This document shows, piece after piece, positions 1 through 64,000 of a stretch of 64,000 bases of DNA (within the stretch, counting starts at the first letter, position 1; the number at the start of each line of letters is the position of its first letter). The position numbers were made by a program, and so were the translations under genes. The stretch covers positions 620,001-684,000 of the forward strand of contig OZ237738.1 of assembly GCA_965178125.1 (NCBI GenBank), given 5' to 3'. The notes beneath the pieces are model-generated. The model saw nothing but the letters and a program-made list of their open reading frames with translations. It searched no databases and was not told where the DNA came from. The stretch comes from Bilabrum cf. latius (taxonomy: Eukaryota).

Positions 1-3000
1 TTCCTGCGGTGTGATCACCACGCTGCTGCCTGCGTCCGTACCGATATCGAGCTCCGCGGGCCCCCCGCTCGCTCCCCGGAAGCCGCGCCCGTGAGGCCGG
101 TGCACTGGCGTGTCTCCCAAACCCCCCATGCCGGACGGGGTACCAGACGGAGATGGATACGAGTCCCTGCGAGACTCCTGAGGGTCCTGCCCTCCAGCCG
201 CCGCCCCCCACACGCCCGCCTATGCCTTCCCGTCCCCACCATGACCTACCGCCCGTGCTACACCAGGTACATCCTCACCGGCAGCACCCCCAGCCCCGGT
301 GTGGTCTGTGACGGCGAGGATGCCGGACCTCGGTCCAGGCGGGTACTAGTCGAGCCCCTGGCCCTGCCCCTGGCCCTGTGCCGAGGCACGATACAACTCG
401 CTCCCGGCATCCGAAGCGCGATCCAGCGCACTCATGTCGTCTCCGGCCCCGGCACCGCCCCCGCCCCACGAGCTTCCCCGCCCTGCCCCAGCCAGCCCCT
501 GGGGATACGCATGGAAAGACGCCGGATCCGCGCCGGAATCTCCCGCCAGCAACCGCTCCAGTGCCGCGTCCACGTCACCGCGGGTCATCATGCCCTTAAG
601 CGCGGCGGTGAAGCGGCGACGATGACCCTTCTGCGTGATCCTGATTGCTGCGGCAACCGGCTTGAAGGTGGCTATTCCGCGAGGCGCAACCCGCAGCTCT
701 GGTCGCCCAAGGTGGCGCGCAGCCCCATACCCCGCGTTAAAGACCATGTCCACCATCACCGCGCCAGCAGGACCCTCCGCCCCGGCCAGGTCGAGGGCAC
801 CGTGGGCGTACTGGCCCATGTGCAACCGAGCATCAAGCCAGGCGGCCACCTCGGCGCCGTTCCAATCCACCAGTCGCCGCCCGTTTCTCGCGGCATCGGA
901 CACCACGTTCTTGGCAGACCGGCCCAGGTATGCCGCGGGCGCGCCATCTTCCAGCGCACGGGTGGCCGCCGCGAAGGAGGTTGGCCTGGGCTTGCCTGCA
1001 GCGTCTGCAGCCGCGAACGACGAGGTTCTACGTTCCCTTTCACCCACCGATTCGCCGCCGGCAACGCCGGTCGCGTACATCTGAGAGCCTTCGATGGCGT
1101 CAGCAGCATCTGCTGCTCGCTGGCGATCCGTGACTTGGTGCACGCCGGCCCACTCACCGCTCACCACGCTCCCGCTGGCGCTGCTCCCGCGCCTCCTGCT
1201 GCGGCGGCTCCTCCTCCTGTGCCGATCGTCTTCGATGCCCTTGGCGCCCAAGCCAGTCGCGTACATTGCCGAGGCATCCACGTGGTCCTGGCTCTCTTCC
1301 TTGCGCAGAGCCAGCTGCTGCGTGCTCTGCTGGCCCACGTGTTGCGGCGGATTGTAGCCCGCGAGACCGCCGCCCCCTTCGTCGTCCATGGTGCCGTACG
1401 AGCCCGCACCGCCGGAGCCAGGCGCTGCCGCCTGCTGGGCACTTTGTTCCAGCCCCACCTGGTCCTGGTCCTGGTCCTGGTTCTGCAGCAGGGGCGCTTT
1501 GAGCCCGGCATCCTCCTCTGCGGATCGCGCTCGGCCCACCGCCGCGGCGCCGTGGCTGCGCGCGGACCGAATGCGGCCGCGACCCATCCGTCGCGAAGGC
1601 TGGGGCTGCTGCTGCTGCTGCAGAGGAGTCGTCGGATCGATCGCCTTTGCTGAGCTGTGCACCAGCGCCTGCGAGTCTGAGCCACCAGCGTCAGCCCACC
1701 CGTCCCCCATGTGCACGGTCCTCACCCCTCCCTACATAGCTGCCTGCGCGTCCACGGTGGCACCGACCCTCACCGCCCATGCGCCCACATCTGTTCCGGA
1801 TCCGCCGGTGGAGTTCACCGCCACGCTGCCCGAGGTGACCTCGTCCAGCCCCAGGCAGAAAGAGCAAGTCCTCCGGACCTCGCCGCGGGCCAGAACCATG
1901 GGATCATCCTGGATGCACGACCCCTGGGTGAGCACAGTGGCGGCCAGCAGCACCAGGTCGTGGATGAGGGTGCAACCCCCGGCTGCCAGCAGCGGCATGA
2001 ACACCCACACCGGCCTGAACTGGCCGGCGTCAGAAGGAACGGTCTGACTTACGCCACTAAACAATTCGCTTTGAGCATCGGCCGAGTCTTCTGGAGCTTC
2101 TGGTCCAGACCCCGGCTTGAATGGAGACCAGCCTGCGTTCAGGGACTCTGCCGCCAGGCACAGGCTGATCCCAGCCGCGAGCGGGTAGGCGGCATCGACT
2201 GCAAGCACCCTCCACCGCCCCGCCGCAGGTGCGAAGAGAGCGTGGGCTGCGATCATGGCCACACCTACCGCGATGCACAGGGCGATGACAGGCGCAAGGA
2301 CAGCCCACCAGTCCACGCCAGACAGCAGGCCATCACCTCCATCCAGCCACGGACCAGCGAGACCGGGAAGGAGTGCGCTCGCAACGCAAAGCATCCCGGA
2401 GAACAGGACGCCGGCTCCGATTCCAATCGTCACACCGGTGGAATTTTCGTCGCGAACCGACACGAATACGGCTCCTGCGAAGAGGACGAGGGCCAGCAGG
2501 CCCACCTGAGCAGCCAGGGGCACCGCGATGACGAAAGCGGAGGCGGCAGCGGAACCGGCTGCCGTGTACCCGTCGGCGCGCAGCGCCCATAGCACCAGTG
2601 TGACGAGTGCCCCCGGCCCGGCCGCGGTGGGCACGCCGACGGCCCACCCGCCCGCCAGCTGCATCAGTCGCATGTTCCTGTCGGCGCCCCCCCCGTGTGC
2701 CCCTGCCTCCCTCACTGCGACCAGTCCCTGGACCAGCCCCACCCATGCGAGGCCGATGCTTGCGAATAGTGGGGCGCTGAGCTGCATCCACGACCAGGAG
2801 GTGACGGAGGAGGGGGCGCGATCCCGAGCGGCGACACCGTCGCTCCACTCGGCTTCCAGCCGGCAACACACCAGCGCCAAACCAAGGAGCTTGGCGAGGC
2901 CAGCCGAAGCTCGCAAGCCGTACAAGCCTAGAATTGGCGTGGCATCATCCGCTGGTCCGATGCTACCGAGTGCTGCTGGGTCCAAACGGCCCTTGCTCCC

Positions 3001-3613
3001 AGATCCCATCGTGCGCCGACCTGTGGACCCAAACAGCGTCAAGAGCACGTATACCGTGCTTCCAGCCATCAGCGCCCAGGTCTGCGACGTGTAATATTCT
3101 TGTGATAAGGATAATGTGCAGATCGCGCCGGTGTCCGGAAATAATTGGGCACGCATTGTATGACTGCAAACGGCTCGCACTTACACACGCCCTCTCGGCC
3201 TCCGTGCCATACTTGGTGCTGCTGGCTAGCCTCGGAAGTCCCAGCACCAGCGTCAAGACCCATGCTGATTTGAGAGACAAAGGTTCAGCCACCCCAGCTG
3301 CAACAAAATAGGCACATGCGCCTGCATGAGCTGCAAGACAGACGATCTGGAGTATGTAGTCGGCATAGTGCACTGACCAGTGCGATGATATCGTCGCAAG
3401 GGCAGCACATGGGCAGCCAATTAGTAGGATGGCAACAATCAGGCTCAGCACGGCCCGGCGACGATCCAATAGAACAGTGCGAGGCGATGACGAGCAGGCG
3501 AAGCGAAGCGAATGCACAATGGCTGCTGCCGCTGCTATCAACAGCCCTGCATCAAAGATGAACGCTTCATAGACCCAGTTGTGCCTATCTTGCAACGCTG
3601 ATGATGGATTCAT
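1..3613 (-). CDS. Multi-pass membrane protein (TMEM185-like motifs) with C-terminal SAM-like domain; 3' end lies beyond the window start
   Basis: Exon 3185-3613 (start could be 3736), intron 3082-3184 (GTAAGT...TCGCAG, phase 0), then one frame to base 1 across TAGs at 1732, 346 and 220. Several hydrophobic segments with SWSWMQLSAPLF and VDWWAVLAPV motifs. LVDWNGAEVAAWLDARLHMGQY resembles the start of a SAM domain. Confidence 0.65.
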
Positions 3614-5746: not shown

Positions 5747-8700
5747 ATGTCGGCAACCGAAGCAAAACATGCAAGATTTCCAGTAGAAGGGCTTATGCCT
5801 AGAACCGAAACACGAGTGAGGTTTGCCTACGTGCTTGACAGAAAAGATGCCTCCTGGATCGCTCTGGAACGCCCTCCCCATCCGATTCCATTTCGAATCC
5901 TATCCCGCAGGCCGATGAATTCACTCGCGCCAACCCATCATTCGATGGACGCGGTGTAGTAGTTGCTATTTTCGACACTGGAGTGGATCCGGCGGCACTA
6001 GGCTTGCAGAAGTGAGATAGTGGCATTGGGTTCTGCTCCGCGACCGGCGCCTCTGTGGGAACCGTTTTTCTTGTTAGCAAATGGGTTGTACGGTCTAGTT
6101 CAAGTGTTATTTTGAATATATTTGGCGCAGGACTTCGGACGGACGCCCAAAAGTCGTCGATGTGGTGGAGTGCACAGGCTCGGGCGACGTGGCAATGGCC
6201 AAGCCGCAGAAGTCCGTGCCGCAGTCTTCAGGAAGCGGTCGAACGATCAAAGGCATCACTGGTCGCGATCTGCTCCTCAATCCCGAATGGAACAACCCGA
6301 AAGACGAGTGGCGCGTCGGCGCCAAGGTCGTCAAGGAGCTGTACGCCACCACTTTAGACCGACGTATGTCCAGCACAGCGAAGAGCGAGCGCGCCAGGAG
6401 GGTGCAGCGCCTGGTGGGCGAAGCCAAGCGTGCACTGCAGGCATGGGACGCATCCAATCTCGGCGGCAAGCCCTCCTCCACTCTGACAGGCACGAAGAAG
6501 CAGGACAGGGAGGAGCTTCAGGCGCGGGTGGACGCTCTCTCCAAGCTGGACTCTGCGCTGTCCAAGGACGACCCGGGCCCGTGCGTGGACGTCGTGTGCT
6601 GGCACGATGGGGCCGTGTGGAGAGCCGCGGTGGATGCCTCGTTCAGCGGCAACATGCGGAGCTCGCCCGGCCTGGCCAATTTCAGGGTTGAGCGCCAGTA
6701 CGCCACCCTGGACGAGGACTCCCAGCTGTCGTACTGCCTAAATGTGTACGACGACGGCGACGTGGTGTCGATCGTCACGGACGCGGGCTCCCACGGCACG
6801 CACGTCGCCTCTATCACCGCGGGCTGCCACCACGACGCCCCTGAATACGACGGCGTGGCGCCGGGGGCTCAGATCGTCGCGCTGAAGATCGGCGACACTA
6901 GGCTGGGCAGCATGGAGACACTGCAGGGCCTGCAGCGGGCTCTCAGGGCCGTCGTGGACAATGGCTGCGACGTAATCAACATGAGTTACGGCGAGCCCAG
7001 CCTGTGGCCCGACTGGGGCAGGTTTGTGGAGCTGGCCAACGACACCGTCAACGACAAAGGTGTCGTGTTTGTGGCAAGGTGAGAGCTGCTTTTCGTGGAC
7101 TGAGCGCGCGTGCGTCTAAGTGCCTGTGCTCGGCTGTTGTGGGTTTGTGCTTTCACTCTTGCGTCAAAGTGCTGCTTTTGCTGGCTGTGTGCTGCTTGGC
7201 TAGTGTGTATATCGCGGTGGTTATCCTCGCGCTGGCAGTCTCCATTGCGCCGCTGCTGCCCTCTGGGCCCGGCCCTGCCTGCGTGGGGAAGCCTCGCGAA
7301 GATCAATGGGACCTTTACCGGTCCCGACTCGCGTGACGACCTTGATGGGCCACTCCCCGCGCCTTAAGAGGATAATGCGATGAGGACAATCCGCTTGAAA
7401 TTCTCCTGCTCTGCTGCGCTTGTGGTGCTTGCTGCGCCGCCTTTGGCATGGCCGGTTGCCTCATGTTCATTGTTGGTGCGTATTCTAGCGCTGCTTCCGA
7501 TGTGGCTCGCCTTTTCGTCCCGTTTGCCTTGACACTATATTCCCTTGGCCTTTCCGATCCATTCGATCTCACAGCGCCGGCAACAACGGGCCTGCCCTGA
7601 CAACGTCGGGGTCCCCTGGTGCTACCAGCTCGTGCATCATTAGCGTGGCAGCTCTGGTGTCGCCCACCATGGCAGAGGCAGAGTACGGGGCCCGCCGTGG
7701 CACCGCCCTGAAGCCGTACACGTGGTCCTCGAGGGGCCCCACCATGGACGGCGAGCTCGGTGTCACCGTGGGCGCGCCGGGCTCCGCCATTGCAAGCATC
7801 CCGACGTGGAACCTCCAAGGCAAGCAGCAGATGAACGGCACCTCCATGAGCAGCCCGAACATGGCAGGCTGCGTGGCTCTCCTGCTCTCTGCAGCCAAGG
7901 CGTCGGGCCTCTCGTGGACCCCTGCCTCCATCCGACGCTGCATCCAGAACGCCGCCGCGCCCGTGCCCGGCGCCGAGGTGTGGGCCGTGGGCCGGGGCAT
8001 GGTGGACGTCGTTGCGACCTGGGACCTGATGCAGGCCGCTGCAAAGCGGGCCGACGAAGAGGCCCAGCGGGCGCTCCAGGCTGCCCGCACGGACGAGAGC
8101 GACGGCATCGTGCAGTGGGCTGGCATCGCCGAGACTGCCCCGGAGCCTTCTTTCTCCCCGTCCAAGCGAGGGGCGGCGGTGTCGGCCGATCCCGGCCAGA
8201 CAGCCAGCACATCTCCCCCTGCCCCTCCTTCTGGACCTGCGCCTGCCAGCGGGCGGCAAGCCGCGTGGCAGCACGGCCTCACCCGGGAGACGAGGCTGTC
8301 GGTGGACGGCGAGGCGGCCCAGCGAAGGGGCATGGTCACGGGCAAGGGCGAGGACTTCAGCTTTCCCGACATGGTCGTCAGCGTAGGATACCAGGGCGCC
8401 GGTGCTGGTGCGCCGAAGGGAAGGGGCGTCTACTGGCGGGAACCGGCGCAGTCTGCCAGCAGCCAGGAAGTGACGGTTTCGGTGCGTCCGCAGTGGAAGG
8501 CGGGTGTGCACCCGCGGGTGAAGACTGCCTTTGACCGGAAGTACAAGCTGGTCAGCACGGCCGACTGGGTGGAATGCGCCGGCCACCTCCACGTCTCCTC
8601 GAGGGGTGCCAACTTCTCGGCGCGCATCGACGCGGATCAGATCGGCCGGACGGGTGCACACTACGCCGAGATCCGCGGGTTCTGCCTAGCCCACGGCAGC

Positions 8701-11235
8701 GCAGACGAGTGCGAGCAGACGGGACCTGATTTCTTCGTACCGATCACGGTGGTGATTGCGGAGGGCGCCGAGTCGCTGTCACCCAACGGGGTTGACACGG
8801 GCTACACCTTTGTTTCGCAGACCAGGGGTGATGCCACGTCGACCCAGGGGCATCCCGGGCAAGCAGACGCGGCTGCAGCCCGCCCTGCCTCGGGCGCACC
8901 AACCACGATCGCGTTCGGGCCCGGCCATCTGGAGCGCCGGTTCATCCTGGTTCCTCCCGGCGCCTCTTGGTGCGACATCTCGATCAAGAGGGTGGATGCT
9001 GGGTCCGACGAAGACAACCTTGCTGCAGGCACGGCAGATGAAGGCGTGGCGTCCAGCGGCGCTGGCGCCGACGGCGGCAAGGCATCCTTGTTCGGCACGC
9101 CAGGCCGCCGCGCGCAGCTGGGATCCACGCAGGCGTCGATCTTGGACGAGGATGCCCGGTCTGGAGGCGCCCTGGTGACGGCCACTGGCACCGGCAGCGG
9201 CACCGCGTCAGGTGCCGGCGGGGAGTAGCCGGTGGTGGACGCCTCCTCCCGGATCATCGCCGTGCATGCCGTGCAGGTGCGACCGCACGTGTCGCTGCAC
9301 CAGTCAGGCAAGGAGCGCTACATGAGGCTGCGGCCCGGGGAGGAGAACAGCATGGGCATGGGTGTGGTGGCGGGCCTCACGCTGGAGGTGTGCGTGGGCC
9401 AGTACTGGAGCAGCCTAGGCTCTAGCGGGCTGCAGGTCCAGGTGCGGTTCCGCGGCGTGAGCGTGCAGGGCTCGGGCACGTTCTCCTCCGGGTCTGGAAT
9501 GCTGCACCTCAGGCCGCAGCCACTGATGCACGACGTGCTGGTAAAGCCAGAGGCAAAGCTCACCCATTGGCACATGGCTGTACCCCCCAGCAAGTTCGTG
9601 GCCGAGGCCATGGGCGAGCGGGATACCCACACGGACGGTGCTCGGCTGTCTCGACTCGAGGTCAGGTACGAGGTGACTGCGCCGGCGTCGGGGTCTTTCG
9701 TGCCTCGTGTGGGCGGGTTGCACGGAGGCAGGCTGCTGTACGAGGCACCTTTCGACTCGCACCTGGTCGTGGCGCACGAGGCAGACACCGGCAAGATCAT
9801 CGGCACTTCGGACGCGAAGGGGGACGCGATCTCCCTGTCGTCGGGCACCAAGTACGTGTTCCGGGTGCAGGCCGTCCTTCCCAAGGCGTCCGATCTGGAG
9901 CAGCTGAAGACGCAGCCTCTTTATCTGATGCACAAGCTGTCGAGCGCCATCACTCTCAAGGCGCACGGGTGCAAGGGAGACGCACTGACCGGCGGGAGCG
10001 GCTACTCGATGCGCAAGCTCCGCCGGTACGTGCAGGATGATGTTTTCTTCGGGCTGCCTGCCTCGTCAAAGCTGCCTAAGAAGGCCAAGGCTGGGGATTA
10101 TCTCTCTGGCAACGTCCAGTTCTGCGACTACGAGAGCGCTGCCGGTGCGCTGAACAAGGGCAGGCACCCCAGCGGCGAGCAGAGCATCGCGTTCTACCTG
10201 GGGCCGTCGGAAACTCCCAAGGAGGCATCCGCCGAGCTGCCTGCCGTACCGAAGGCCTCGGGCGGCAGCAAACCTGCCTCCTCGGAGGCGTCGTCGTCGA
10301 GTGGGGGAGCAGCAGCGTCCGGTGCTGGCAGCGACGGGGACGCAGGTTCGAGCCCCGATGCAACGGAAAAGGAGGTGGCGGAGGCTGTGCGCGACGCGTC
10401 CGTGAGTGCTCTCAAGAAGCTCAAGTCGCGCGCCGCATTTGACCTGCTCCACGATGCGCTGCTGAAGGAGCACCCGGAGCACCTGCCGCTGCTGCAGGCC
10501 CGGCTTGACTTCGAGGTTGATGCGCTGCGCAAGGAGGACCCCCAGGGCACCGGGCTTGACGTGGCGTCCGTGCGAGTGGCCGTGGCGGCTGACGCGGTGG
10601 TGGCTGCGTGCAACCCCGACGAGCTGGCGGCGTACTTCGGCCGCAAGGTGTACGAGGACGAGCTGGAGGGCGACGAGCTCAAGAGGCACAAGGACATGGT
10701 CAGCAAGAAGAAAGACCTGGTCAAGGCTCTGAGCGCGAAGGCGAGCGCGTTTGTGAGGTGCGTGCCTGCACTGGCTCGGGCTGGCAAGGAGTCCAGCGCT
10801 GCGGAACTCCCGGCCGCTGCTCGCTCTGTGCTTGCGACCAGCGGCAAAGCGGACGGGGGCGCGGGTGCGACTGCCGGGGGCAATGCAGCATAGGAGGCCG
10901 AGAACAACGCGGTTGCTGAGGCGTTTGGTGATGCCGTGCGGGAGCTTGGCGTGTGGAAGGACTTGTCGGGGTCAGACAAGAAGGGAGAGCTGGCGGTGCT
11001 GCTGGCCGAGAGGCACGTGAGGGCGGGCCGGCCCGCGAAGGCCCTCATGCTCGTCCACGGCTGCATCGATGACGGAGCAGCTGCTTCCTTCGAGCACCTC
11101 GGCGGGACTGCGGCCGCAAGGTCGTGCCGCGCTGCTCTGGTTGCTGCGCTCGGCTGGGACGTCTTCAGTGAGTCCATCGAGCGAGCTGAGGCTGGTTTGC
11201 GCGCGCACAAGGCCCAGTGCGCTGCACCCCTTTGA
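5747..11235 (+). CDS. TPP2: Tripeptidyl-peptidase II (subtilase S8), ~1592 aa
   Basis: Exons 5747-5815, 5911-6011, 6131-7078 and 7575-11235. Motifs [16 protein letters not shown] (Asp), HGTHVA (His), SAGNNGP (across the splice junction) and [12 protein letters not shown] (Ser). In-frame TAG at 9226 and 10891; ends TGA. Confidence 0.95.
7079..7574 (+). other. TPP2 intron 3 (496 bp, unusually long for this window)
   Basis: GTGAGA...TCACAG; splicing restores FVAS/AGNNGP. The other introns in the window are about 70-175 bp. Confidence 0.9.
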
Positions 11236-11665
11236 TCGCGTGGTGCAGTAGCTGGTGCAGCTAATGGTCCGCACAGCATGAGGACATCTCGGCGATGCAT
11301 CGATACGATCAAATTCATGCATCAGAGTTGTGCAATTCACTCCAAGCGATTGCTGCTAGGCCTATACAGTCAAGTGTTTGTTTTGCAGTGGAGCGAATCT
11401 CAGGCTGTACTCATCACCCCAATCAAGCATGTCTCGAGTGTTTCCAGCCCACTTCACAAGGCGATCAGGTGTCAATGAACCAATGAACCCTGAGATTTAA
11501 CAATATCCCAGTACTTACTATCCCGCTGGGCATCGCTGGTGTTGCTTCAGCGCTTACTGCCAGTCGCGAGCTCGAGAGCAAGGACTCAGTACAAGCAAGT
11601 GCTCTGTTCAACCTGGGCCGTCGCTAGCCCGGTCCTGCCTGGTATCCGTCCTCTCATACTTGAAA

Positions 11666-14600: not shown

Positions 14601-15439
14601 GAGCCCCGCAGCATCGACCGTGGGTTGTGCTGGAGGCGATCGATTCGCGGTGCGTCGGGCCTCACGCATGGGTGCGGTGCTTGCTGCGAGCCACGTCAGA
14701 CGACGACGGCAAGCTGAAGCGCTCTAGTGTCGGGGGGCAACATGGGCGCGAAGGAGCCGATCGTAGCGGGGCGGGAGAGGCTGGGGAGGAGGAAGACTTG
14801 CTGCAGAGCATGTTGGATCAGGAAGACGCTACAGGTGGTGGGAGTAAGAGCCCGCTGGGTCTGAGGCTGACAGCCGAAACGCACGACGCGGAGCGATTGC
14901 CCGCAGCGGCAGCAACAGCACCGACGGCAGCGGCCCGCCCAACAGCTCCCACCGAGCCTGCAAGCTCGTGCATGGCACGCGGTCTGACCCCAAAGATCGT
15001 CGGGCTGGCAGCGGGGCAGGAGGTGGTGGCCCTGTTCGGGGCATCGCGCTGGAGCTGGCTGTGCAGCGCGGGGAGGGCGCCTGCCTGGCTCCGAGCAGGT
15101 ACTCGAGGGGAGGATGCTCGCTCCAGGGGATCTGGATTTCAAGCTAAATCGGTGGCGGTGAATGTGAGCGGTGCGATGGATGGCGATGGAGAGGGGAGGT
15201 GGAGGGAGCGGGCTGGGTTCTGCGTGAGGGTGCACGGCCCGTTCTCCGTGCTGACCAAGGGCTCAGAAGAGGGGGGCGGGGGACAGAACTCTCTCAAGCG
15301 AGTGGGCGCTGCCGATCCCGGGGGGGCGGCAGGAGCATCATCTCGGTCCAAGGGAGTCGGTAGGGAGGAGCGGCGCGGGCTGCCGGTCCTACTGTCGACC
15401 GCGATGAGTGTGGCTGTCAGGACGACGGTGTGCCTATGA
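11666..15439 (+). CDS. Hypothetical 1257-aa single-exon protein, mostly low complexity; C-terminus weakly SPIDR-like
   Basis: One frame from ATG 11666 to TGA 15437, interrupted only by 9 TAGs (11840, 11858, 12053, 12125, 12164, 13130, 13370, 13901, 14252). Six ORF-track fragments fall in this frame. Confidence 0.75.
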
Positions 15440-15819
15440 GCCGAACTGGGTATTGGCATCCGTCGTCACCAATGTATTTCCGTGTCATTTCATACCCACT
15501 ATCATTTCCTGGCATGGAAATAGGAATACCAAGAGAGGCCGGTTCCCCAGATGAGTGCGGTTGCAACCGCATCGAACCGCTTTGTCTCTATTTCTGCTAG
15601 CACTTGGCATTTTTTGCCGGATACGGAACGGCATTATATTGTTATTTGTAATACAAATAAGTTGACACTGCGTTTACAAGGTGAGTACTGCTCTGCCTGG
15701 GTTTCGAGAGGTGAATCGATGCTGCTAAATATGACATGATCGCTCTGGGGCCCTTCAGATTGTCCTTCATGTGCATGTTTGGCTTCTTTAGAATAGAATT
15801 ATCAATTATTATCATCGGG

Positions 15820-50102: not shown

Positions 50103-51169
50103 ATCCTTTGTTTTGCTTGTGTGCGTCAATGTGTGCTGCTGGGTTGCATCTCTGGGAGCTGCACGGAGTGCTAAGCCTCTTTTGTGCTTCGCTGCTGCCC
50201 AAGATAGCGATTACTTCGGTGGCGTGCATCCGGATGGTGCTTGTAAAACCATACTTTTGGATCAAGGTGCACCTTACTCGAGGACAGGCACATTTCTTGG
50301 CAACCTGATGCCGGGGATCAGAATAGAGGGAGGTCGCCCGCCTCTCTTCGGAAGGCATGGGCGAAGACAGCTCTCGCCCTGGATCCCTGGGACGAGAAGC
50401 TGGAGTACACCAACAGGGCCAAGCCAAACGTCGAAGGCGCGCTCATTCGGATAGAGCGCACGATTGCACGGTCTTCGGAACGTACAGCTGTCAAGGTGCT
50501 GGCCAACCGAGTGGTTCAGGTGCTCAGAAACCAGCTGCGCCAGCAGGAGCAGCTGACATGCAGGCAGTGGATGCGTGGTGATGCGGCGGCTGCCTTAGCC
50601 GCCACGGCCACGCAGGAGCTGATAGCGGCAACCAATGCGAACGCCCGACTACAGCGACGGATTTTCAAACCCCACGGCTTGCTAAAGGATATAGAGAGGC
50701 AATGGGCCAAAGGCATGAGCGCGTGCATGCTCGCCTCTCTGAAGGATCGTGAGACGCAGAGACGGTCATGGAGGAGGAAATGGTGGGTCTCGACCGGGGA
50801 CCCTGATGTGGGACTGGACCGCGCCTTGTGCCGGGCACACGCTCCGCACCTGTATGCTTTCTCCTTGTGAAGGCAACAGGCTGGGGGCCTGTGGGGGACC
50901 ACATTGATGGCAAAGAATGGGAACTCGGCGGCATAGGCTGAGAACGGGGGGCCCTTGGCCTGAAAGGGTCGGGGGTCTTGTAGTCCTTTGTTTTAGGGCT
51001 CCTCTGGATCTAGGTGATCACCCAAACCCCCTCGGGGGCGACGGTGCATCTGGGTGCTTACGGAATCTTTACCCAACAATGTATTTCTGTATTTCTGTAT
51101 TTCATTTCTATTTTTGCAACGAGCGATACCGTTAGCCCAGTTCACTTATCCGTTATACTTGTTTATAGC

Positions 51170-54100
51170 ATGCTACCACTGCGTGACCCCAGCGTGGAGC
51201 GCAGGGTACCGCCAATGAAGAAGGTTTTGCCCAAGCTTGTTGCCCCCATCGGACAACCCAGTTGCATGACAGCTGCTGAGCTCCGAATGATGCACCAGCT
51301 ATGTGATAAACTGAGTGATGATGGGAAGTATCACAGCGTGGCTATCGAGAAGGCTGAGGTGGACTTGCTGTGCGGCAAGCTCTTGGGAAGCACACATGAT
51401 TCGAAAGTGCTTGTGCTCGACTTGGTGCGGACTCTGACGCTCGTATCGAGTGCAAGGGGCGCGCTAAGCTCAAAGTGGGTGCCGATTGTATGTGTATCCC
51501 TGGGGCCATTGGGAGATACATAGTCACCTACGGGCTTGCGACGCGTGTGCTCGGAAGCGCTGGCTGCGATGTTCGCCGCGTCGCCGCGTCGGGCATTTCG
51601 AGATATATCTGCCCCAAGCGCATCTCATGAACAGTATAAGCTAGTCGCCGATCAATCTGGTTCGGGGGGAAGTGTATAGACCGCTGGAGCGGAGCTTGCT
51701 GCTGGCGATGAGTCAACGGGAGTCATGTCCATGCAGTCGGTCGCACGTGCTGTTGACGGAGGGAACGAATGGAAGTGCTTCGCCCTCCAAGCAACCAAAG
51801 CTGCCACACGAATTCTACTCGCTCCTCGCACTGGTTCACCATCTGCTGCCGACAAGAAGCTCATGCTGGCAGCCGGCCGGTTGCTGATGACGGTATCTTG
51901 GTGTCTCGGCCAAGAGGCCGGGAAAGAGGAGTCGAAGGGATCTGGGAAGTCGCTGGCGGTGGGCAACGGCATCGTCGAGGCAGCATGCGGTGTGATCGAG
52001 GGCTTTATAGAGGCAGGGGATGAGGAGGAGAAGGAGGCTGGGTTTCGGGATGGGCTGAACCGGACGGTGCTTCTGGCTGCAGGGACGGCGTGCCACTGGG
52101 TGCCTGAGGCCAGGAAGAGGATGGAGGAGTTCGAGGTGGCAATGGCCTGGCTGGAGTCTGTAATAGATGGCATAGACGATGCAGAGGGTGATATATCAGG
52201 CAGGTGGGGCAAGCAGGATGCCACATCGGTGGGTGCCATCGCGAGTGGCGTGCTTCGTGTGCTGCGGGCTGAGGAGGAGGAGCCGGCTGCATCGTCCGGT
52301 GCTGGAGCAGATGACAGGGGGTATGCGCCTGCAGCTGGACGTGGGAAGTACTCGAATGGTGGATACTAGCCCATTGATGCTCCTACTCTGGCTGTCACTC
52401 ACAGGCAGGAAGCCAGGGAGCTGGAGTTGGAGCGAGCCAGAGCAGAGGAGGGAGTGGTTGTAGCATCAGCTAGCCGGGCAAGTGCAGCCATTCCGAATGC
52501 ATCCAATGCTACATAGCCCAAGGATCCTCAGCGCGACTTCGACGAGGCCCGGCAGATGGTGGCTCTGTCTCTGCTGGAGGCCAGGGAGCGCAAGGAGGCC
52601 ATCGAAGAGGTGGGCCTGGAGTTCCAGAGAGACGCTGAGGAGGCGGCCAGGCATGTGCCGGAGCTGATGGGGCTGGGAAAGTGGAGTAAGGGCCAGCAAG
52701 ATGAGGCTGTACAGGCAGCAACTGGGCATGCTGGGTAGGATGCAAGGGGTAGGGTCGCACTGCATGGTCTAGAGAGAGTTAGCGGTGGTATTGCAGGTGG
52801 CGCCAAGGCCATCCACAAGCAGCATGGGCTCTTCCTCAAGACTCCCAGCGATGAGCACGGTCTCTACGGCAGCGATGTCATGGCGGCCAAGGTAATGAAG
52901 CTGGAGATGAAGGCAGCCAGGTGGGTGCACGAAATGGACTCCATCCACGCCAACGGAGCCCTCACCACAGTGGTGGATGTGCCATATGAGCACAAGGATG
53001 GAGGGGGCATGGGTGTGTAGCGAGTGCTGGTGCAGGCACGACTCGGTGTGGGATCTACCACGCTTCGGTACGGGTCATCGAATAGTGGCAGGACGATCCA
53101 TCAGGACGAGGAGCAGGAGCGGGATGTTGTGGATGAATTGGCGGATCACTTCTGGCTGGCTCCAATCGGTCAGGCTTTGTGCGAGAAGCTGGTGCTGCAT
53201 AGGTACAAAAACCCGGCAGATGATACTGAATGTGCGTTCAACTGGCTGGACTACATGAAGTCAAAGGGCCACGACATGCGTGAGATTGAGGAAGCGTTCA
53301 TTCCCACGGACATCTCGGACAGGTCCGTGGAGTCGATGGTGTTGGAGGCTGGGGCTGATCTAGGCGCATCGTACCAGCCACGGAACGATCCACACGCATA
53401 GAGCGAGATAGCGCTTGCCTCACCGGGTCCACCAGTCACCGTTCGGTTGCAAGATGGCAGCTTGAGCCACAAGCTTCCATTCGACGTGGAGGTGCACCAG
53501 CTATCGAGTGGACGTCGGATGGTGCTCGATTCGCACCGTCTACTGATGCCTGACTTGGCCTGGATCAAGTGGTTGCGGAAGAGCGATGAATCCAGGCCTA
53601 GTGTATGGGCAGTGCAAATCAAGACCTCCGGTGAGCCGATGCCTATTGCTGATGAAGATCGCAGATTGAATCTTAGAACTGGACAGTTAGATGATATTCG
53701 AACCTGGGATAAGGTCAGTGCTGGCAGGCTGCCAAACAGTGTCAGAGCGTGGGCTCAGGGAATGGGCTTGCTTGACCTGTCAGACGATGTGCAAGAAGTG
53801 TCCAAGCACCGAGGTGCGGGTATCGTGCTGCTCAGTAGCAAGCCATCTAAGGAAAAGCCATCAGTGCTGTTCGTGGTATCGTGCCCGGCCTGGTACTGGG
53901 GCAACACACCCAGTCTGACCTGCATGATGCCACCGGAAGCAGCGAGGGTGGTGCGGGAGCTGAAGGATGGGGATGGCAATGCACTGCCTCGTGTGAGTCC
54001 TGACTGCATGCTAAGGCAAGGCTGCGATCCAGCTGGTAATCACAAGACCGCCCTGCTTCAAGTGACAGGAGCACTGTAGTCGGAGGGTCGATTGAAGCAA

Positions 54101-56092
54101 GTGCACAGGGAGCTGCTACATAGCTGTGAGCAAGTTCCGCCAGAGGATGATGGGGTGACTAGATCTCGCTCTGACCGTCTAGCGTCACTTCGAGCTGCTG
54201 CGAAGGCTGTTTTGAAGAAGTACGGTTTGTGTCTCCGTCACATCGGCATGGTGCACCGGCTATCCGAGAGGGGATTACAGCAGCTGACAGCCGACATGCT
54301 ATGGGCGTGCTGCTTGCCATTACCAGGAACGCAATCAGGCCGTGCACTGGCTGATGCGTTGGCCGCTGCAAAATCAGCTGTATCGTGTGAAGCAGGTAAA
54401 TCGCTGGACATCACTGCCGTGACATGGGCAGTTTGCAGTGCCCGTTCGTTTGCCGCCCGCGGGCTTTTGCTGCCGGGCACATCAATGGACGATTTCGGTG
54501 GAAGCGAGATGTCTCAAAGCAAGATGGGTCGCTTCAATTTTGATGCAGAGGTGCCGCTGGGCGCAATCGCGCTTGCCCAGCATGACGATGGGCATAATTT
54601 GGCGGCACATGAAGGACCCTGCCTGCCAAACCATATTGCCGTCGGTATCAGTCAAGCTGCTGCTGGTGGCTCCATTACTCGAAGAAACGATGGCAGCATT
54701 GATTTGGAAGGAGGCAAGTAGCGGGTGCTTAAACTCCTGACTGAGCTGGGCCACGTGCAGCGAGTGCATGGGTCGGGACAGGCGCGATTGCTGAAGCAGC
54801 TGGCCTCCGTTGGAAAGCACGGGGGGCATCTGCGGTCTATGGCGTTCCGGTGCATCGCACGAGTGGGCAGTTGCACTATGTCTGGAAGAGATGAAGCTGA
54901 GTCAAGCTCCAATGCTTGGATGTCAAGGTCCCTGCAAGGTTTGGGATCTATTGAAGCTGCCCTTGGATGCCACATTTAGCGCAGAAAGGACCATTCCTAG
55001 TCGATTGGGGTAGTTGATACGAGCAACATGGCCAGTTGCTTGCACAGCATGGGTCGACATGGAGAGGCGCTGAAGCTGCATGAGGAATGCAAGGAGGTCA
55101 TGGCCCGTGTGCTCGGCAAGGAGCATCCTCACTACTTGAATACTGTTGGCAACATGGCCAACTGCTTGCACAGTATGGGTCGGTATGGGGAGGCGCTAAA
55201 TCTGTACAGAGAATCCAAGGAGATCATGGTCCGTGTGCTCGGCAGTGAGCATCCTCACTACCTTCAAACTGCGGGTAACATGGCCAGCTGCTTGGACAGC
55301 ATTGGCCGGTACGGGGAGGCGCTGAAGCTACATGAGGAATGCAGGGAAGTGCGGGCCCGTGTGCTCGGCAGGGAGCATCCTGACTACCTGCACACCGTGG
55401 GTAACATGGCCAGCTGCTTGCATAGCATGGGAAGGCAAGGGGAGGCGCTGAAGCTACATGAGGAATGCAAGGAAGTGAAAACCCGTGTGCTTGGCAGGGA
55501 GCATCCGCAATACCTGCACACTGTGGGTAACATGGCCAGCTGCTTGCATAGCATGGGTAGACATGGAGAGGCGCTGAAGCTGCATGAGGAATGCAAGGAG
55601 GTCACGGCCCGTGTGCTTGGCAAGGAGCATCCGGACTACTTGAGCACTGTGGGCAACATGGCCAACTGCTTGCATAGCATGGGTCGACATGCGGAGGCGC
55701 TAAAACTGCATGAGGAATGCAAGGAAGTGAAAAGTTGTGTGCTCGGCAGGGAGCATCCATCCTACTTGCGCACTGTGGGAAACACGGCCGTATGCCTGTA
55801 GGACATGGGTCGGCATGGAGAAGCGCTGAAGCTACATGAGGAATGCAAAGAAGTGAAAATCCGTGTGCTTGGCAGGGAGCATCCTGACTACCTGCACACT
55901 GTTGGCAACATGGCCAGCTGCCTGTACAGCATGGGCCGGTATGGGGAGGCGCTGAAGCTGTATGAGGAATGCAAGGAAAAGCAGGCCCGTGTGCTTGGCA
56001 GGGAGCATCCTGACTACCTGCGCACTGTAAGCAACATGACCATATGCTTGGAGAGCATGGGTCGGTATGGGGAGGCGCTAAAACTACATTGA
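51170..56092 (+). CDS. Clu (clustered-mitochondria)-domain protein with N-terminal PUL-like region and C-terminal 42-aa TPR array (~1640 aa)
   Basis: One frame with 12 TAGs; ends TGA. Clu motifs GIAGGAK...GLFLK..SDEHGLYGSDVMAAK...TLRYGSSNSGRTIH and PFDVEVH...GRRMVLDSHRLLMP; CLU-central-like LKKYGLCLRHIG; PUL-like KYHS...LLCGKLL...VLDLVRTL. Start uncertain. Confidence 0.8.
55022..56089 (+). repeat. Coding tandem repeat, 126-bp unit, 8 full copies plus a partial ninth (kinesin-light-chain-type TPR)
   Basis: Unit GNMASCLHSMGRHGEALKLHEECKEVxARVLGREHPDYLHTV recurs at 126-bp spacing with high DNA identity. Confidence 0.95.
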
Positions 56093-57315: not shown

Positions 57316-57674
57316 TATATACCAAGGCTCAGCTCAAGGCAGAGAGCGGCGCATGCGGCCAAGGCCCCGCTCCTTGGGACCTTGAGGTGCGGATGGTGGA
57401 TGTGGCTTGCGCCACTCTTGCGTACTCCCAGGTGGCTGCATCGACTGGATCGAGTCTGTCGTGCGAAGTTGGAGATGGGGAATCCCAGAGGAGTCGCTCC
57501 AGCTCTGGTTGTGCCCCCCTGCGGCACCTGACAAAAAAAACGAACAAATTCGGGTTAAATTTGGATCAATGTGCACCTTACTCAATTTGAAATTCCGGCA
57601 ATTCAGAAATTCCCGGCATAGCAGCTCGATTTGGAATTTTGATTTGATTTTTTTAGTTTTCGCTTGAGTTCACG

Positions 57675-60600
57675 ATGATTGCTAGGCCTTCTCGGTCCGC
57701 TGCATCTCGTGGTACTGCAGGTGGTGATCAAGACGATGTTGCAAGACAGGCATACGAAACGAAGTCTGGCAGGCACACAAAGCGCGTGAATTACAATTGG
57801 GAAGACCAGGAGGCAGATATTTCCGACGACGATATTGTTTCACGCGGTAGTGTGGCGCACGAATCGTCCGAGGAAGAGCCTGAGATAGATGAGTGGATCA
57901 TCGACCAGATTGTGGCTCGCAGAAGGCTGCACTTGACGCCGGCCGAGATTGCGCGGAAAGCCACGGAAGAGCACGACGCCTGGGGCATGGGAGAATATGC
58001 TTAGTTTGAGTACTTGGTGAAGTTCCAAGGGCGCTCATACCTCCACTGCAAGTGGTGCGACATTGCAGTCGTTGCTGAGCACGGCCCCGATAGGATTAAG
58101 ATGATGCTCACTCGGTTCACGAAGAAATGGGACTAGGAGCATGGTGACGAAGAGGAGTCTGGGGAGTATATCGACCCGTCGTTTTTGCAAGTCGACAGAA
58201 TCCTTGCAGAGAAGGAGGTCGAGCGGCTTTTCCCGGTGGACAGTCCTCTCCCCCCGCGCCTCGCCAAGGTGCTCGGCTTGTCCTCCTCCGCGGGGCATTC
58301 TCCGGGCCCCAGCTCATCTGCAGGGTCGACAGCTGCAGCGATCGCCAGCCCAGGGTACACAGACATGTCTTCCAGACCCTCCTCCAGTGATGGCACTGGG
58401 GCACTGCAGGCAGGCACGAGGGCTCGGAGGTCACTGGGCACGACGAGCGATGGAGACGCAATGGAGGGATCCAGTAGCCTGGACGCTGAGGCAGCTGCAG
58501 CTGACCAAAAATCTGCGAGCGATTCATCCAGCTCTGCAGCCGCAGCAGCCGATGAAGACGGCGAGGATGAGGATGGCTCGCCCACCGCAGAGGCAGGAAT
58601 AGGACACTCTTCGTCGGCTGCATCCGCTGCTGCAGAGTACATGCCAGAGGAGCTGGCAAACAAAACGAGGCTAGTTGCTTACGAAAGCGTTTCGGTGAGG
58701 CAGGCGCAAAAGCAAGGTGGCAAGTACCGCGTGATCCGAGAGCGAGCCTTCCTGGTCAAGTGGATGAACCTGCCCGACTCGTACAACACCTGGGAATTCG
58801 CAACTGATCTCGATGACGACGCCAAGGTGCTTGCTTACAGGCGAAGGTCGAAGCCACCGTCCACTGCGAGGCTGGACCCAGGCAGGCGGCTCATGGGCTG
58901 CTAGCCCACGCAGACCGCCATGCAGCTGGCGGGCATGGGCTCGGGAAGTGCTGGTCTGTTCGCATCAGGCAGCTCCGGTGGAAGGCCTGGCCAGCGTGCT
59001 GGAAGCAGCGCAAGGGAGAGGAAGGCGCAGGAAGATGAGGACGAATACGATGCCATGGATGCTGACCTTGATGACGCCCACGAGGACGATCAGGAGCTCG
59101 ACCATTTGGTGGAGGAGGAGGACGAGGACGGCGGCTTGGACCAGCAAGGAGCGTATGAGATGGACTCTGACGACGAGGCCGACTACTCGCAAAAGCTCGG
59201 TGACTTTGATCGGCAGAAGACGGTGTTTCTTTCTGAAGCGCTGACGATCGCAATGAAGCCGGAGAATCTGGCCCAAGTAGGCGTCAGCATGCCCCAGCCA
59301 GCCGAGGCTGCCCTGTGGCCAGACGAGACGGACAAGGTGGAGGAGCTTCGGGCAAGCGTGGAGGACCTGGAAGACGAGTGCGAGCACCAAGAAGACGAAG
59401 GCAACGATGCGAGCGAGAGCCGCGACAAGCTAGAGAAGCTGCAAGAGGACCTCTCTGCCACTGAGACGAGGATGAAACAGAGGCACGAAGCTCTGATGGA
59501 CTTCCAGCAGAGACATGAAGCATACAAGCTGAAGCTGTAGATGCACGAGAACGCGGTGCGAACTCACTTGCAAAACTAGGTGCAGTTGGAGAGGCAACAG
59601 TTCATCGTGCAGCTGCAGGCTCAGCTAAGCAAGTCCAAGCACGAGCGCGGGCCAGATGGAGGGCATGCCTCGCGCCGCAGGCAGTCCTCGAAGAGAGGCT
59701 ACGTGCCGTCTAGCAAGTACGAGCTGCCGGGCGCAGAGAACCTTCCGGCCAAGTACCACAGCCAGAACAACCTGCCTGCAGGACTCGGCCGGGACGATGA
59801 CGTGAGGCCTTTGCTCTCGAAGCACGCGATGCGGTCGCTGGAGTTCGCAAAGAACATCGGCAACTTGGTAATGTACGCCTACGTCAGGTCCTTGGCAGTG
59901 TCGGGCAAGCGACAGCGCGACATCTGCAAGGCCGTCGGACTGAACCACAGCGGCATCAGCACGTACATCAACGGCCGCAGTCGGTTGTCGAAGCGCTGGA
60001 CCACGGCTCTCAGAGAGTGGCTCAGCAAGAATCTCGATCCCGCACTGGAGGCTCACCGATCTGCCATCCTCAAGGCTGAGCCCAACGTGGACGTCGACTG
60101 GGGGGTGATGACGAATGAGGAAAGACAGCAGGAGAAGGAACGGCTTGAACAGGAACGTATCCGACAGGCAGGTATTGAGATGGCCGACGACGAGGGGCCG
60201 ATTGGGTACGACCTGACCGACAGCAGAGCTGCCGTCACAGAGCAAGTTAGGGCGGGCGCGCTGCAGCAGGGCATCGACCCTGTCGCGAGGGCGATGGAGG
60301 GCGTGCGGCGCGACCACCGTGGCGTGTCCCGGTTTGAGGCATACGGCGTCAGCATCATCGACGGCATGACTGCGGATGTGGAGGTGGGCGACGACAGCAA
60401 TGGTGGTACAGGCGAGGCAGCCGGCAGTGGTAGAAATTTTAATTTGTTCTCCGCTCCCGTTGCAATGAGTTATGATGCCCGAGCAGGCTCCAGTGATGTA
60501 CTGAAGCGCGCCGCAGTCGCGGATGCCATCGCGGTGATGGCAGGCAATGCGCACCCTGGCACGCGCGAAGATCTGCCCGCTCTCCCCACCGAGCGTTCAG

Positions 60601-63600
60601 GACTCACCGAGGAGCAGCTGGCCGACCGCAGAGTACACCTCGAGCTTGCGCAACAAGCCGCTGCATATGTTTCTAGCGACTGCGTCGCCTTGGTACCAGC
60701 TGGTGGCCTGCATCTGCTGCTGGACGGGTTGGAGCCTATGCTTGCCGATTTGGAGATGCAAGCTGGGCCTCCTCAGACCAGCGAGCAGTCCTCCAGCTCG
60801 CCTCTCGAAGAGAAGAAGGAATCCAAGGATGACGAGGAGGATGCTGCGATGCGAGATGACGGCGACGACGAGGACGACGAGGACGATGAAGACGAGGCGG
60901 GGGGCGCTGCAGATGCTGCAGGCGGGAAGCACGAGCACCGTGGCAGCTTGATTTGGCTCAGGAGGCTCTACGCTGCGGCATCCGCCGAGGCCGTCCGCAC
61001 GCTCAAGCGGGTCGATCGCATGCGCTCAGAACGAGAGGCGCGTCGGGAGGAGCTAGGCTTGGAATCCAGCGAGGAAATGGGGGCGGGTGCGACCGAGAAT
61101 CCAGCGCTTGAGGTTGTACTGGCCACCGTAGCTGCCAGAAAAGACACTTGGTCCGGAGCCAGCGATGCTGCTGCTAGTGCTGCTGCGGCTTAGGTTGCAC
61201 GTAGTATTGCTCCGTCCACGGTAATTGCTGCCGGCTTGCCTGGCCCTGATCAAGGTGGAAGCAGTCCTTCAGCAGATGCCGGAAGTGCCGGCGACGGCAG
61301 TGAGGCTGGTTCAGCCAGCGATGCGAGAGGCAGTGCCCCTGCAGATGCAACATCCAGTGGTACCGCCGGAGCTTCCGGCAGCTCGCATGCCGGGGCATCC
61401 GCCCAGGCGGCCATGGAGGAGGACGAAGATGCGGGATCGCTCTCCGATGTCAAGGCAGAGCCGACGGGATTTTCAACCACCGAGGCAGCGAGGGAGGTGA
61501 TTGCGGAGGCGACGGCAGCCACTGCTGCCAAGTCCAGAGAGATGGTGGCCCACCAGCTCCTGCCAAGAAACGAAGCCATGTCTATCATCTCGCCAATCCC
61601 TGCATCCTTGATGTGTGCATCTTTGGGGCACGTTTTTCTTGGCGGGAGGTGGCTCTCAAGAGGTCTCAGTGAGCACAAGGTCCGGGTCGCTTTCCGCGAC
61701 ATTGGGCCAGAGGCAGCGTCTGTTCTGTACCCGGTGTATCTGCAGCTGTGCGATCAGACAGACAAGGGGTCGAGGGCAGGCATTGCCATGTGGGACCCTC
61801 TAGACGGAGACTATGCGACTGCGCTGGCAGCTGCCAAGAAGGGCGATTCAGCGCAGGCGCCGCACTCAAGAGCCATTGACAAGGTGGTGATCGCCTTGTA
61901 TGAGGCTAGGCGGTAGCAAGAGGACACCGCAATGCTGTTGTCCTCTGCATCGGCAGCATCCGGCGAAGCGCTTGCAACGCCACCGAGGGGCAAGGGCGCC
62001 GCATCTGGGGCCGGCTCCTCCCTGTCCTCACTGGACGACATCACTGCCTTGCTGGCAGATGCAGGATCTCCGCAAGGCGGCATGATCGGAAGGTCCCAGG
62101 CACTTGCGGCAGCTGCACAGGCAGCAGCGCTTGGTGGCTCCGCGCGTCCTCGGCAGGTGCGTCTGTGGGACTCAACAGACGACCCGGAGGATGGTCCCGT
62201 GGATTGGGACGAGGTGCCCATCATCATCGAGTCCAAGAGCAAGCAGCCGCCTCCCACTCGCAAGGCTCGTGGGTCTGGCTTTATCCCCTACGATCAGAGC
62301 ATCGAGTACGGTGGTGGTCGCACGCTTCGTAGCTATCAGGTGGAGGGTCTGAACTGGTTGCTGGCTGCGTGGCATGGTCGGCGCAACGTCATCCTCGCTG
62401 ATGAAATGGGCCTCGGGAAGACGGCTCAGATCATCTCGTATTTTGAGCACCTGCACCGAGCCGACGGAGTGAAGGGTCCTTTCTTGGTCATCGCTCCCCT
62501 GAGCACGATTGCCCATTGGAGGCGAGAGACCGAAGCGTGGACGGATATGCAGGCTTGCGTCTACCACGGCAGCGGTGGCCTCGGCAAGACAGGTTCTGAG
62601 GTCCGCGCGATGATCCGGGAATGGGAGTGGTACTATCCTGGCTACGCCAAAGAGCCGGCCGCACTTCGGTTTGACGTGCTGATCACAACGTATGAGATCG
62701 CCATCCAGGACGTGGAGCACCTGGCAAACATTCCGTGGGTGGTCATGGTAGTTGACGAGGGTCACAGGCTGCGGGGAGCAAGCAGCAAGCTGAAGGAGGT
62801 GCTGCAGGGACACCTCTACAACGACCGCGGTGACATTGCCGAGAAGGGCATCGAGGCAGACTTCAGGGTGCTGCTGACCGGCACGCCCCTGCAGAACAGC
62901 ATGGCTGAGCTGTGGTCTCTACTGAACTTCCTTGAGCCCGATCTCTTCGACAACTTGGAACAGTTCAACGACGAGTTTGGCGAGCTGCGCACCCAGGAGC
63001 AGGTTGGCAAGCTTCAGCGCATGCTGGCGCCGCACCTCCTACGCCGAGTCAAGGAAGACGTGGAGAAGAGCATCCCCCGCAAGGAAGAAACCATCATTGA
63101 GGTGGAGCTCACCCTCGTGCAGAAACAGTACTACCGGGCTATTCTCGAGAGGAACCGTCTCTTCTTGTACCGTGGGTGTGACAAGAGCAACCTTCCGGGC
63201 CTGTCCAACATCGAGATGCAGCTAAGGAAGTGCTGCAACCACCCGTATTTGATCAACGGCGTGGAAGACAAAGACGTGATAGACTTTGAGCAAGGATTGA
63301 GGCAGCAAGTCAAGGAGCGGAAGCCGGAGCTTGAGGAATTGCGGCGCAAAGAGAAGGCGGCCGCAAGGGGCATGCCAGTGGATCTGTCAGCTGCGACCGT
63401 GGCATCTGCGTCCTCTGCAGCATCATCTTTGTCTTCCTCGTCGGCAAGCGCGTCTGCCTCTGCCACTGGTGAATCCATGGGCGGGCCAGACGCCAAGCGT
63501 GATGGCTCCGGTCATGTAGCAGAGGATGCCGATCTCTTGAGGCTCCATCGCTTGCGACGTCTGCCGGGACAGCACCGTCGCATCGAACGCATGATCGAGG

Positions 63601-64000
63601 CATCTGGAAAACTTGTTTTGCTGGACAAGCTCTTGCCCAAGCTCAAGGCAGAGGGCAAGAAGGTGCTCATTTTCACCCAGATGGTTCGCGTGCTCGATCT
63701 CCTGCAGGAGTACTGCCACTACCGCAAGTACAACGTGGAGAGGCTTGACGGCAATATCACAGGCAATGCGCGGCAGGCGGCCATCGACCGGTTCCAGACA
63801 CCAGGCAGCGACTCTTTCGTCTTCATCCTAAGTACTCGCGCGGGTGGGGTGGGCGTGACATTGACTGCAGCCGAGATTGTGGTAATCTTCGACAGTGATT
63901 GGAACCCACAGAATGACTCTCAGGCGCAGGCTAGGGCACACCGCATCGGACAGACGAAGGAGGTCAAGGTGTATCGGTTGCTGACCCGTGACACATACGA
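57675..64000 (+). CDS. CHD-family chromatin remodeler (CHD6-9-like): tandem chromodomains plus SNF2 ATPase; truncated by the window end
   Basis: Chromodomains FEYLVKFQGRSYLHCKW and FLVKWMNLPDSYNTWE. ATPase motifs LRSYQVEGLNWL, ILADEMGLGKT, VDEGHRL, LLTGTPLQN, LRKCCNHPYL, LSTRAGG, DSDWNPQND and RAHRIGQ. One frame with 7 TAGs (58002, 58134, 58902, 59538, 59577, 61191, 61914). Confidence 0.95.

Follow-up and report, generated by a model that had tools for sequence, protein, structure and literature searches.

The nuclear genetic code seldom changes, and it is even less common for UAG and UAA to be given different meanings. The code in which UAG specifies glutamine and both UAA and UGA are stops is NCBI table 15. 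That in which UAA and UAG (UAR) both specify glutamine is NCBI table 6, which is used by many ciliates, hexamitin diplomonads, oxymonads, ulvophyte algae and the aphelid Amoeboaphelidium. The subject of this analysis is the meaning of the UAG codon in a 64,000-nucleotide stretch of contig OZ237738.1 (positions 620,001 to 684,000 of the forward strand). This whole stretch is referred to as the window, and its positions are numbered from 1. The window is very probably nuclear DNA of a GC-rich, intron-poor eukaryote in which UAG is a sense codon, most probably for glutamine, and in which UGA (usually) and UAA still terminate translation, this being the same code as table 15.

The nuclear codes that separate UAG from UAA in meaning include those of a rhizarian, Iotanema, Scotinosphaera and a few ciliates (PMC11687900, PMC5304391). 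The lineages described by McGowan et al. 2024 (PMC11687900) as having UAG as glutamine with UAA unreassigned include Iotanema spirale, Protocruzia tuzeti and some phyllopharyngean ciliates. In I. spirale (Metamonada: Fornicata) UAG is glutamine, UAA and UGA are stops, and UAA is reported as the primary terminator (PMC5304391). The window is like I. spirale in that only UAG is reassigned, to glutamine, in that the UAA stop is kept, and in not being of ciliate type. The two differ in their terminators, UAA being the main one in I. spirale whereas TGA ends seven of eight genes in the window. They also differ in kind, I. spirale being an endobiotic anaerobe known from its transcriptome, whereas the window has 57–66% GC, very long low-complexity genes and a CLU-type gene. 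It is unlikely that the organism of the window is Iotanema.

P. tuzeti and the phyllopharyngean metagenome-assembled genomes have the same code table as the window, with UAG as glutamine and UAA unreassigned. Compared with these UAG-only ciliates, however, the window is GC-rich, lies on a long contig and has genes of up to 3200 codons. The table 6 lineages share with the window the reading of a stop codon as glutamine, presumably through a mutated tRNA-Gln, but the window has no in-frame TAA. Other reassignments of UAG only are those to leucine in the rhizarian exLh and some ciliates and to serine in Scotinosphaera (as cited in PMC11687900). In these codes UAG and UAA are uncoupled as they are in the window, but Leu and Ser fit the aligned TAG sites of the window far worse than Gln does. 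Scotinosphaera differs further in that the tripeptidyl-peptidase II (TPPII) of the window does not group with green-alga and plant sequences.

In-frame TAG codons in the window

Five results support reading UAG as a reassigned sense codon: the genes are interrupted by TAG only, catalytic domains lie downstream of the TAGs, independent data sets including spliced contigs agree, a relative has TAG at other sites, and glutamine predominates at aligned positions. Under the standard code the longest frames in the window reach only 250–690 amino acids (aa). When TAG is read through, frames fuse to 711, 1060, 1113, 1278, 1312, 1716, 1888, 2117, 2905 and 3206 aa. The counted set consists of ten long open reading frames (ORFs), each taken from its first Met and together comprising 16,932 codons, with two of the genes running off the window. 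TAGs within introns or 5' leaders of the raw ORFs were left out, for example that at about 21882 in the intron at 21873–21965. The ten ORFs contain 95 in-frame TAG, no internal TAA, no internal TGA and no frameshifts.

Per 1000 codons, TAG occurs 5.6 times in frame, against 6.6 and 8.4 times when this DNA is read in its two alternative frames. The corresponding figures are 0.1 against 2.4 and 3.3 for TAA, and 0.4 against 16.4 and 23.0 for TGA, an in-frame depletion of about 30–50-fold for these two codons. The in-frame density of TAG is therefore near that found out of frame and TAA and TGA are purged, so that the coding frames show no selection against TAG, only against TAA and TGA. Chance is excluded as the source of this pattern.

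The initial annotation had read UAG as a sense codon throughout the window, from a hand count of about 100 in-frame TAG with no internal TAA, TGA or frameshift in GC-rich DNA. The recount bears this out, with per-gene figures agreeing within one or two and a G+C of 0.57–0.66 across the window. Its counts for the DENN gene (29, given as ~29), the giant ORF (15), the CLU gene (12), the WD-like ORF (8) and the CHD gene (7) are reproduced exactly; the histone deacetylase (HDAC) gene, for which it gave 10, has 8 after the Met and 9 in the whole ORF. The sense reading of UAG stands, and the description of the change as genome-wide is an extrapolation from the 64 kb of the window and 5.3 kb of a relative. 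The genes, exons and introns are as follows.

1..3180, reverse strand: long ORF that runs off the window, with 3 in-frame TAG (first bases 1734, 348 and 222) and no Pfam family
5919..7079, forward strand: upstream exon of TPPII, matching Peptidase_S8 profile positions 26–148
7075–7569, forward strand: TPPII intron of ~490 nucleotides (nt), splitting the subtilase domain exactly between S8 profile positions 148 and 149
7570..11235, forward strand: main TPPII exon, with S8 from position 149 and the TPPII Ig-like, GBD, TPPII and TPPII_C domains, 2 in-frame TAG (9226 and 10891) and a TGA end
11501..15439, forward strand: low-complexity ORF with 9 in-frame TAG, a TGA stop and no Pfam family
15679..15961, forward strand: GT..AG intron of 283 nt in the HDAC 5' leader, skipped in a contig of sequencing run X5
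15977..21406, forward strand: histone deacetylase gene (class-II-type HDAC; Pfam Hist_deacetyl, E=3e-95) with a TGA stop
21705..21791, forward strand: GT..AG intron of 87 nt at the 5' end of the DENN gene, skipped in an X5 contig
21873..21965, forward strand: GT..AG intron of 93 nt at the 5' end of the DENN gene, skipped in X5, holding the one TAG (~21882) that seems to be in frame in the raw ORF
21966..31400, forward strand: DENN-domain protein gene of ~3100 codons, with 29 in-frame TAG, of which 12 precede the DENN domain, and a TGA stop
34391..37732, reverse strand: ORF of 1113 codons with 8 in-frame TAG and the only TAA terminator in the window
38607..40742, forward strand: ORF of 711 codons with 2 in-frame TAG, a TGA stop and no Pfam family
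41385..50102, forward strand: giant low-complexity ORF of 2905 codons with 15 in-frame TAG, a TGA stop and no Pfam family
50942..56092, forward strand: gene for a CLU (clustered mitochondria)-type protein with TPR repeats, assigned by Pfam, with 12 in-frame TAG after the first Met
57648..63998, forward strand: CHD-type chromodomain/SNF2 helicase gene that runs off the window, with 7 in-frame TAG, every one of which precedes the helicase domain

The families confirmed by Pfam are TPPII, class-II-type HDAC, DENN, CLU with TPR, and CHD/SNF2. Conserved domains are located 3' of TAGs in three of these genes, the HDAC domain after 4, the DENN domain after 12 and the CHD helicase after 7, and translation must therefore pass those TAGs. 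The eight TAGs of the HDAC gene are at 15989, 16238, 17195, 17225, 18170, 19262, 19619 and 19724; four are upstream of the catalytic domain and one is inside it. The share of TAG among the glutamine codons is 6 of 67 inside Pfam domains and 52 of 367 outside, which is not a significant difference (P=0.33). When the CHD protein was searched against the PDB, its TAG sites lay in regions that are variable or not aligned.

Sequencing runs were compared over 11501–31400, which holds three of the genes, and stretches without cover from run X5 or X7 were not counted as evidence. The list of runs included no RNA holder, and its small-share entries, such as 'algae metagenome' and 'protist metagenome', were left out of the comparison. 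In run X1 a single contig spans this region (19.9 kb, inside a 42-kb record) with no differences, and it may be the source of the window. The contigs of run X5, which belongs to a different study from X1, are letter-identical to the window except that they skip 15679–15961, 21705–21791 and 21873–21965. These three exact intron skips in otherwise identical sequence are a sign that the X5 contigs are derived from cDNA. All 46 of the counted TAGs of the three genes (9 + 8 + 29) are covered by X5 contigs, which show no differences and have none of their joints at a TAG. Parts of the HDAC gene are covered as well by X7, a run of the X5 study. The same letters are present in contigs of X1, X5, X6 and X7, from three studies, and the sole difference listed in any run is a T>G at 12663 in one low-depth X7 contig, which probably reflects strain variation or an error. 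The TAGs did not arise in assembly. The X5 contigs keep every counted TAG with the introns removed, which argues against editing and against the TAGs being spliced out. The initial annotation had proposed checking that UAG is retained in mature mRNA, and these contigs fit such retention, their cDNA nature being read from the joints.

Relatives, the amino acid and the terminators

Used as a query against metagenome contigs, the HDAC domain gave 14 loci. Two of these, L001 (5306 bp) and L002 (2533 bp), come from different metagenome records, are 100% identical to each other over 2533 bp, have 60–62% G+C, and match the HDAC catalytic domain of the window with 91% aa and 75% nt identity. On these figures the HDAC orthologue is under purifying selection behind several TAGs in both organisms. 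The HDAC frame of L001 has 17 in-frame TAG in 1527 codons, one of which precedes the likely Met, and no TAA or TGA. Since the organism of L001 also has in-frame TAG, the trait is older than its split from the organism of the window. No TAG site is shared in the alignment of the two HDAC sequences (1395 columns, 57% identity). The next nearest loci, L003 and L004, are 50–54% identical and have no TAG in 590 and 257 codons, respectively.

A hint that the trait may reach beyond the organism of L001 comes from fragment ORFs related to the CLU protein (25–70% identical), of which 5 of 29 end exactly at a glutamine of the window against 3.3% expected (P=0.002). The DENN segment gave no matches among 8000 scored candidates of near lengths in the protein collection, and none of its 478 pattern matches in metagenome contigs was a relative. 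The same was true of the matches obtained with DENN alignment A1, 37 in genome contigs and 21 in viral contigs.

The amino acid was assessed from TAG sites in well-aligned context only, with one observation per site and 17 sites in total. Opposite four TAGs of the window, L001 has Q (17195), Q (17225), E (18170) and S (19619); opposite seven TAGs of L001, the window has Q, R, R, Q, Q, R and Q. Two further sites come from P0006, an uninterrupted TPPII of 1189 aa from a Logan assembly that is 96% identical to the window. At the first TPPII TAG (9226, in 'GGE-TAG-PVV') P0006 has Gln with identical flanks, and at the second (10891) it has Glu, with the next residue swapped too (TAG-E in the window, E-Q in P0006). 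P0002, a DENN fragment of 305 aa that is 58% identical, has S and H at two TAG sites. The CLU protein was searched against 1.84 billion representatives, the residue for each column being taken, by the analyst's choice, from the nearest homologues. Gln is present in 8 of the 12 best-matching homologues at site 53018 ('GV-TAG-RVLVQA') and in 4 of 12, including the top match, at site 54077.

The partners at the 17 sites are Gln at nine, Arg at three, Glu at two, Ser at two and His at one. With Gln at 4.1% of codons, nine or more Gln have a probability of 6e-9; when the two CLU columns are left out the tally is 7 of 15. In a likelihood derived from BLOSUM62 Gln comes first, with a lead of 3.9 log10 units over Arg, 4.1 over Glu, 5.5 over Lys, 7.5 over Ser, 10.8 over Tyr and 12.9 over Leu. 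Gln is also the most enriched residue within two positions of a TAG (1.73x), and the self-clustering of Gln is 1.91x. The initial annotation had looked to aligned TAG columns for a consistent residue, and it is Gln that predominates there. On these alignments UAG most probably specifies glutamine.

Of the six Gln codons aligned with TAG between the window and L001, four are CAA, although CAA is the minor codon of the pair (176 against 521 CAG).

The eight complete genes end in TGA seven times and in TAA once. The ratio of CAA to CAG (176/521) predicts about 32 in-frame TAA beside the 95 TAG if the two were synonymous, and none is seen (P~1e-14). UAA is not a sense codon. Reading the window with table 6 lengthens frames only in leaders, with an additional 12 codons after the single TAA terminator.

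Alternatives, mechanism and lineage

Several results weigh against UAG as glutamine in a code that otherwise keeps its stops. Eight of the 17 aligned sites are not Gln, and the Glu match at 18170 has 18 of 20 flanking residues identical. Over all 60 matches at CLU site 53018 the residues are Y 19, Q 12, I 8 and F 6, and over all 33 matches at 54077 they are L 8, Q 5 and C 5. The full neighbour-profile likelihood does not single out Gln, Ala being 0.9 units better. The ORF at 34391..37732 on the reverse strand ends in ..CCT TAG TAA at 34391–34396, which is either a sense TAG before the only TAA terminator or a tandem stop, and which leaves room for some terminating use of UAG. Run X5 is labelled only 'RNA? 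(probably DNA)', its cDNA origin being taken from the three intron-skipping joints. A tRNA scan of the 64-kb window found none, and the mechanism is drawn from other lineages. The data examined, 64 kb of the window and 5.3 kb of L001, are a small sample.

Codes in which a codon is stop or sense according to its context are found in Condylostoma, karyorelicts and Blastocrithidia. A dual meaning of this kind, with UAG as sense within genes and as stop near the end of the mRNA, is unlikely in the window. It would accommodate the gene that ends in ..TAG TAA, and an X5 contig that ends ~40 nt past the HDAC TGA would fit short 3' untranslated regions, contigs being unable to show RNA ends. In the seven other complete genes, however, the last TAG is 98 to 560 codons before the terminator. 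The C-terminus of TPPII up to the TGA is conserved in P0006, and the base following a sense TAG shows no bias (P=0.10). It is quite improbable that UAG is sense for an amino acid other than glutamine (Glu, Arg, Ser, Leu, Tyr or Lys) or that its decoding is ambiguous. UAG codes for Leu, Ser and Glu exist in other eukaryotes (PMC11687900), and the partners that are not Gln include the Glu at 18170, the best-conserved site. These partners (R, E, H and S) are nevertheless the usual exchange partners of Gln, and Tyr, Leu and Lys are found at none of the well-aligned sites. All of the amino acids proposed fall behind Gln in the likelihood given above, and in the 96% identical P0006 a TAG site whose flanks match in full is occupied by Gln.

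It is extremely improbable that the TAGs are not translated as such, whether as sequencing or assembly errors, as marks of decayed pseudogenes, as parts of small introns or as sites restored to CAG by U-to-C editing. Editing of TAG to CAG would likewise give Gln at the aligned sites, and the RNA nature of X5 is a guess rather than a record. Against editing and small introns, the 46 TAGs are kept unchanged and without joints in the X5 contigs from which the three introns are out. Errors and decay would also be expected to give TAA, TGA and frameshifts, of which there are none in 16,932 codons. The identical letters in contigs from three studies speak against error, and the purifying selection on the HDAC orthologue behind TAGs in both organisms speaks against pseudogenes.

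The following readings were rejected. Pyrrolysine does not fit sites that are variable, align with Gln and occur at 5.6 per 1000 codons in a eukaryote. Bisulfite-like C>T damage would also make TAA and TGA. The table 6 code was rejected on in-frame TAA (0 against ~32 expected), UAG as Leu on 0 of 17 sites and −12.9 log10 units relative to Gln, and UAG as Ser on 2 of 17 sites and −7.5 log10 units.

If UAG is glutamine, it would be decoded by a tRNA-Gln with the anticodon CUA, one anticodon change from tRNA-Gln(CUG), as in other lineages with this code. Such a tRNA would pair with UAG and would not read UAA because of the C:A mismatch. The release factor eRF1 would have a weakened recognition of UAG. 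We infer both steps from the scenario proposed for Iotanema, in which UAG is decoded as glutamine by tRNA-Gln(CUA) together with an altered eRF1 (Panek et al. 2017, PMC5304391). The eRF1 of Iotanema is reported to carry a T32G change in the GTS motif (PMC5304391, PMC9161772). The eRF1 gene of the present organism lies outside the 64-kb window, and an Rfam scan of the window gave no match. New TAG codons would arise freely by C>T change of CAG and would turn over rapidly through neutral C<->T exchange, CAG and TAG being synonymous. Fast turnover of this kind would explain why no TAG site is shared with L001 and why both TPPII sites differ from those of a 96% identical strain.

In a tree of 30 TPPII rows P0006 is grouped with the window, which then sits within a fully supported clade of seven sequences (P0007–P0010, P0012). 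This clade joins, with 97% SH-aLRT (Shimodaira–Hasegawa-like approximate likelihood ratio test) support, a group whose only named neighbour is the oomycete [Pythium] brassicae (29% identity). The window is apart from a clade of green algae, haptophytes and plants, from fungi and from arthropods. The tree is of a single gene with an arbitrary root and has no ciliate, rhizarian or metamonad (fornicate) rows, and the stramenopile affiliation that it suggests is a lead, no more. That the organism is not a ciliate is read from its genome style, there being no ciliate sequence in any tree. A search of the ESM Atlas with the helicase part of the CHD protein gave generic SNF2 clusters only, which are taxonomically uninformative.

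For other lineages this variant of the code has already been published (PMC5304391, PMC11687900). In the full-text literature searched, a scope that left out most subscription journals and supplements, no GC-rich non-ciliate with UAG as glutamine was found besides Iotanema. Any novelty would lie in the lineage and its style, namely a GC-rich genome, very long genes of low complexity and UGA as the principal stop. We tentatively propose, as a possibility falling somewhat short of an even chance, that the window represents an independent and undescribed reassignment of UAG to glutamine in a GC-rich lineage that is neither ciliate nor fornicate and is perhaps affiliated with the stramenopiles, with UGA as the main stop and the trait shared by at least two organisms that are also present in environmental metagenomes.

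If so, it would join the very small number of lineages outside the ciliates that uncouple UAG from UAA. A further lineage would serve as an independent replicate for how eRF1 loses UAG yet keeps UAA and for whether tRNA-Gln(CUA) suffices. It would be distinctive in being GC-rich, in having UGA as the main stop and in TAG sites that turn over even between near-identical strains. With DNA and RNA data from culture apparently available, it could be a tractable system for how eRF1 tells UAG from UAA. There is also a practical consequence, in that annotation of this organism or its relatives with the standard code fragments almost every long gene. The DENN gene of the window is itself present in public protein collections as pieces of 42 to 244 aa.

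Other features of the window

The upstream TPPII frame at 5919..7079 begins with about 60 codons containing 3 TAG that are probably intron and were left uncounted. A further upstream exon must exist, since positions 1–25 of the S8 profile are missing. The label 'WDR27-like' given initially to the ORF at 34391..37732 could not be confirmed, Pfam finding no family at E<=0.001.

The X5 and X7 contigs both leave the window sequence at 15026, 17071 and 21145. The 30 nt beyond the loose end at 15026 do not occur anywhere in the window. These ends could mark alternatively spliced joins to an exon beyond the window, belong to a paralogue or come from chimeric contigs, and owing to them the 3' part of the ORF at 11501–15439 beyond 15026 is uncertain.

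The C-terminus of the CLU protein consists of near-identical TPR repeats of 42 aa, encoded by 8.4 tandem copies of a 126-bp unit at 55023–56079 (82% matches). The frame ends at a TGA (56090–56092) in the middle of the array, and the gene may either be truncated there or resume past an intron. Two TAG-free open frames on the forward strand, at 56014–57531 and 1–1653, are 505 and 550 aa long and rich in Pro, Ser, Cys and Arg, with no Pfam family; they are probably non-coding and kept open by the high G+C. In the lower-GC stretch at 3300–5900 there is a weak Vps55-like match at about 4305–4542 on the forward strand (E=0.004, below the Pfam cut-off), which may belong to a small gene with introns, overlooked when only ORFs are viewed.

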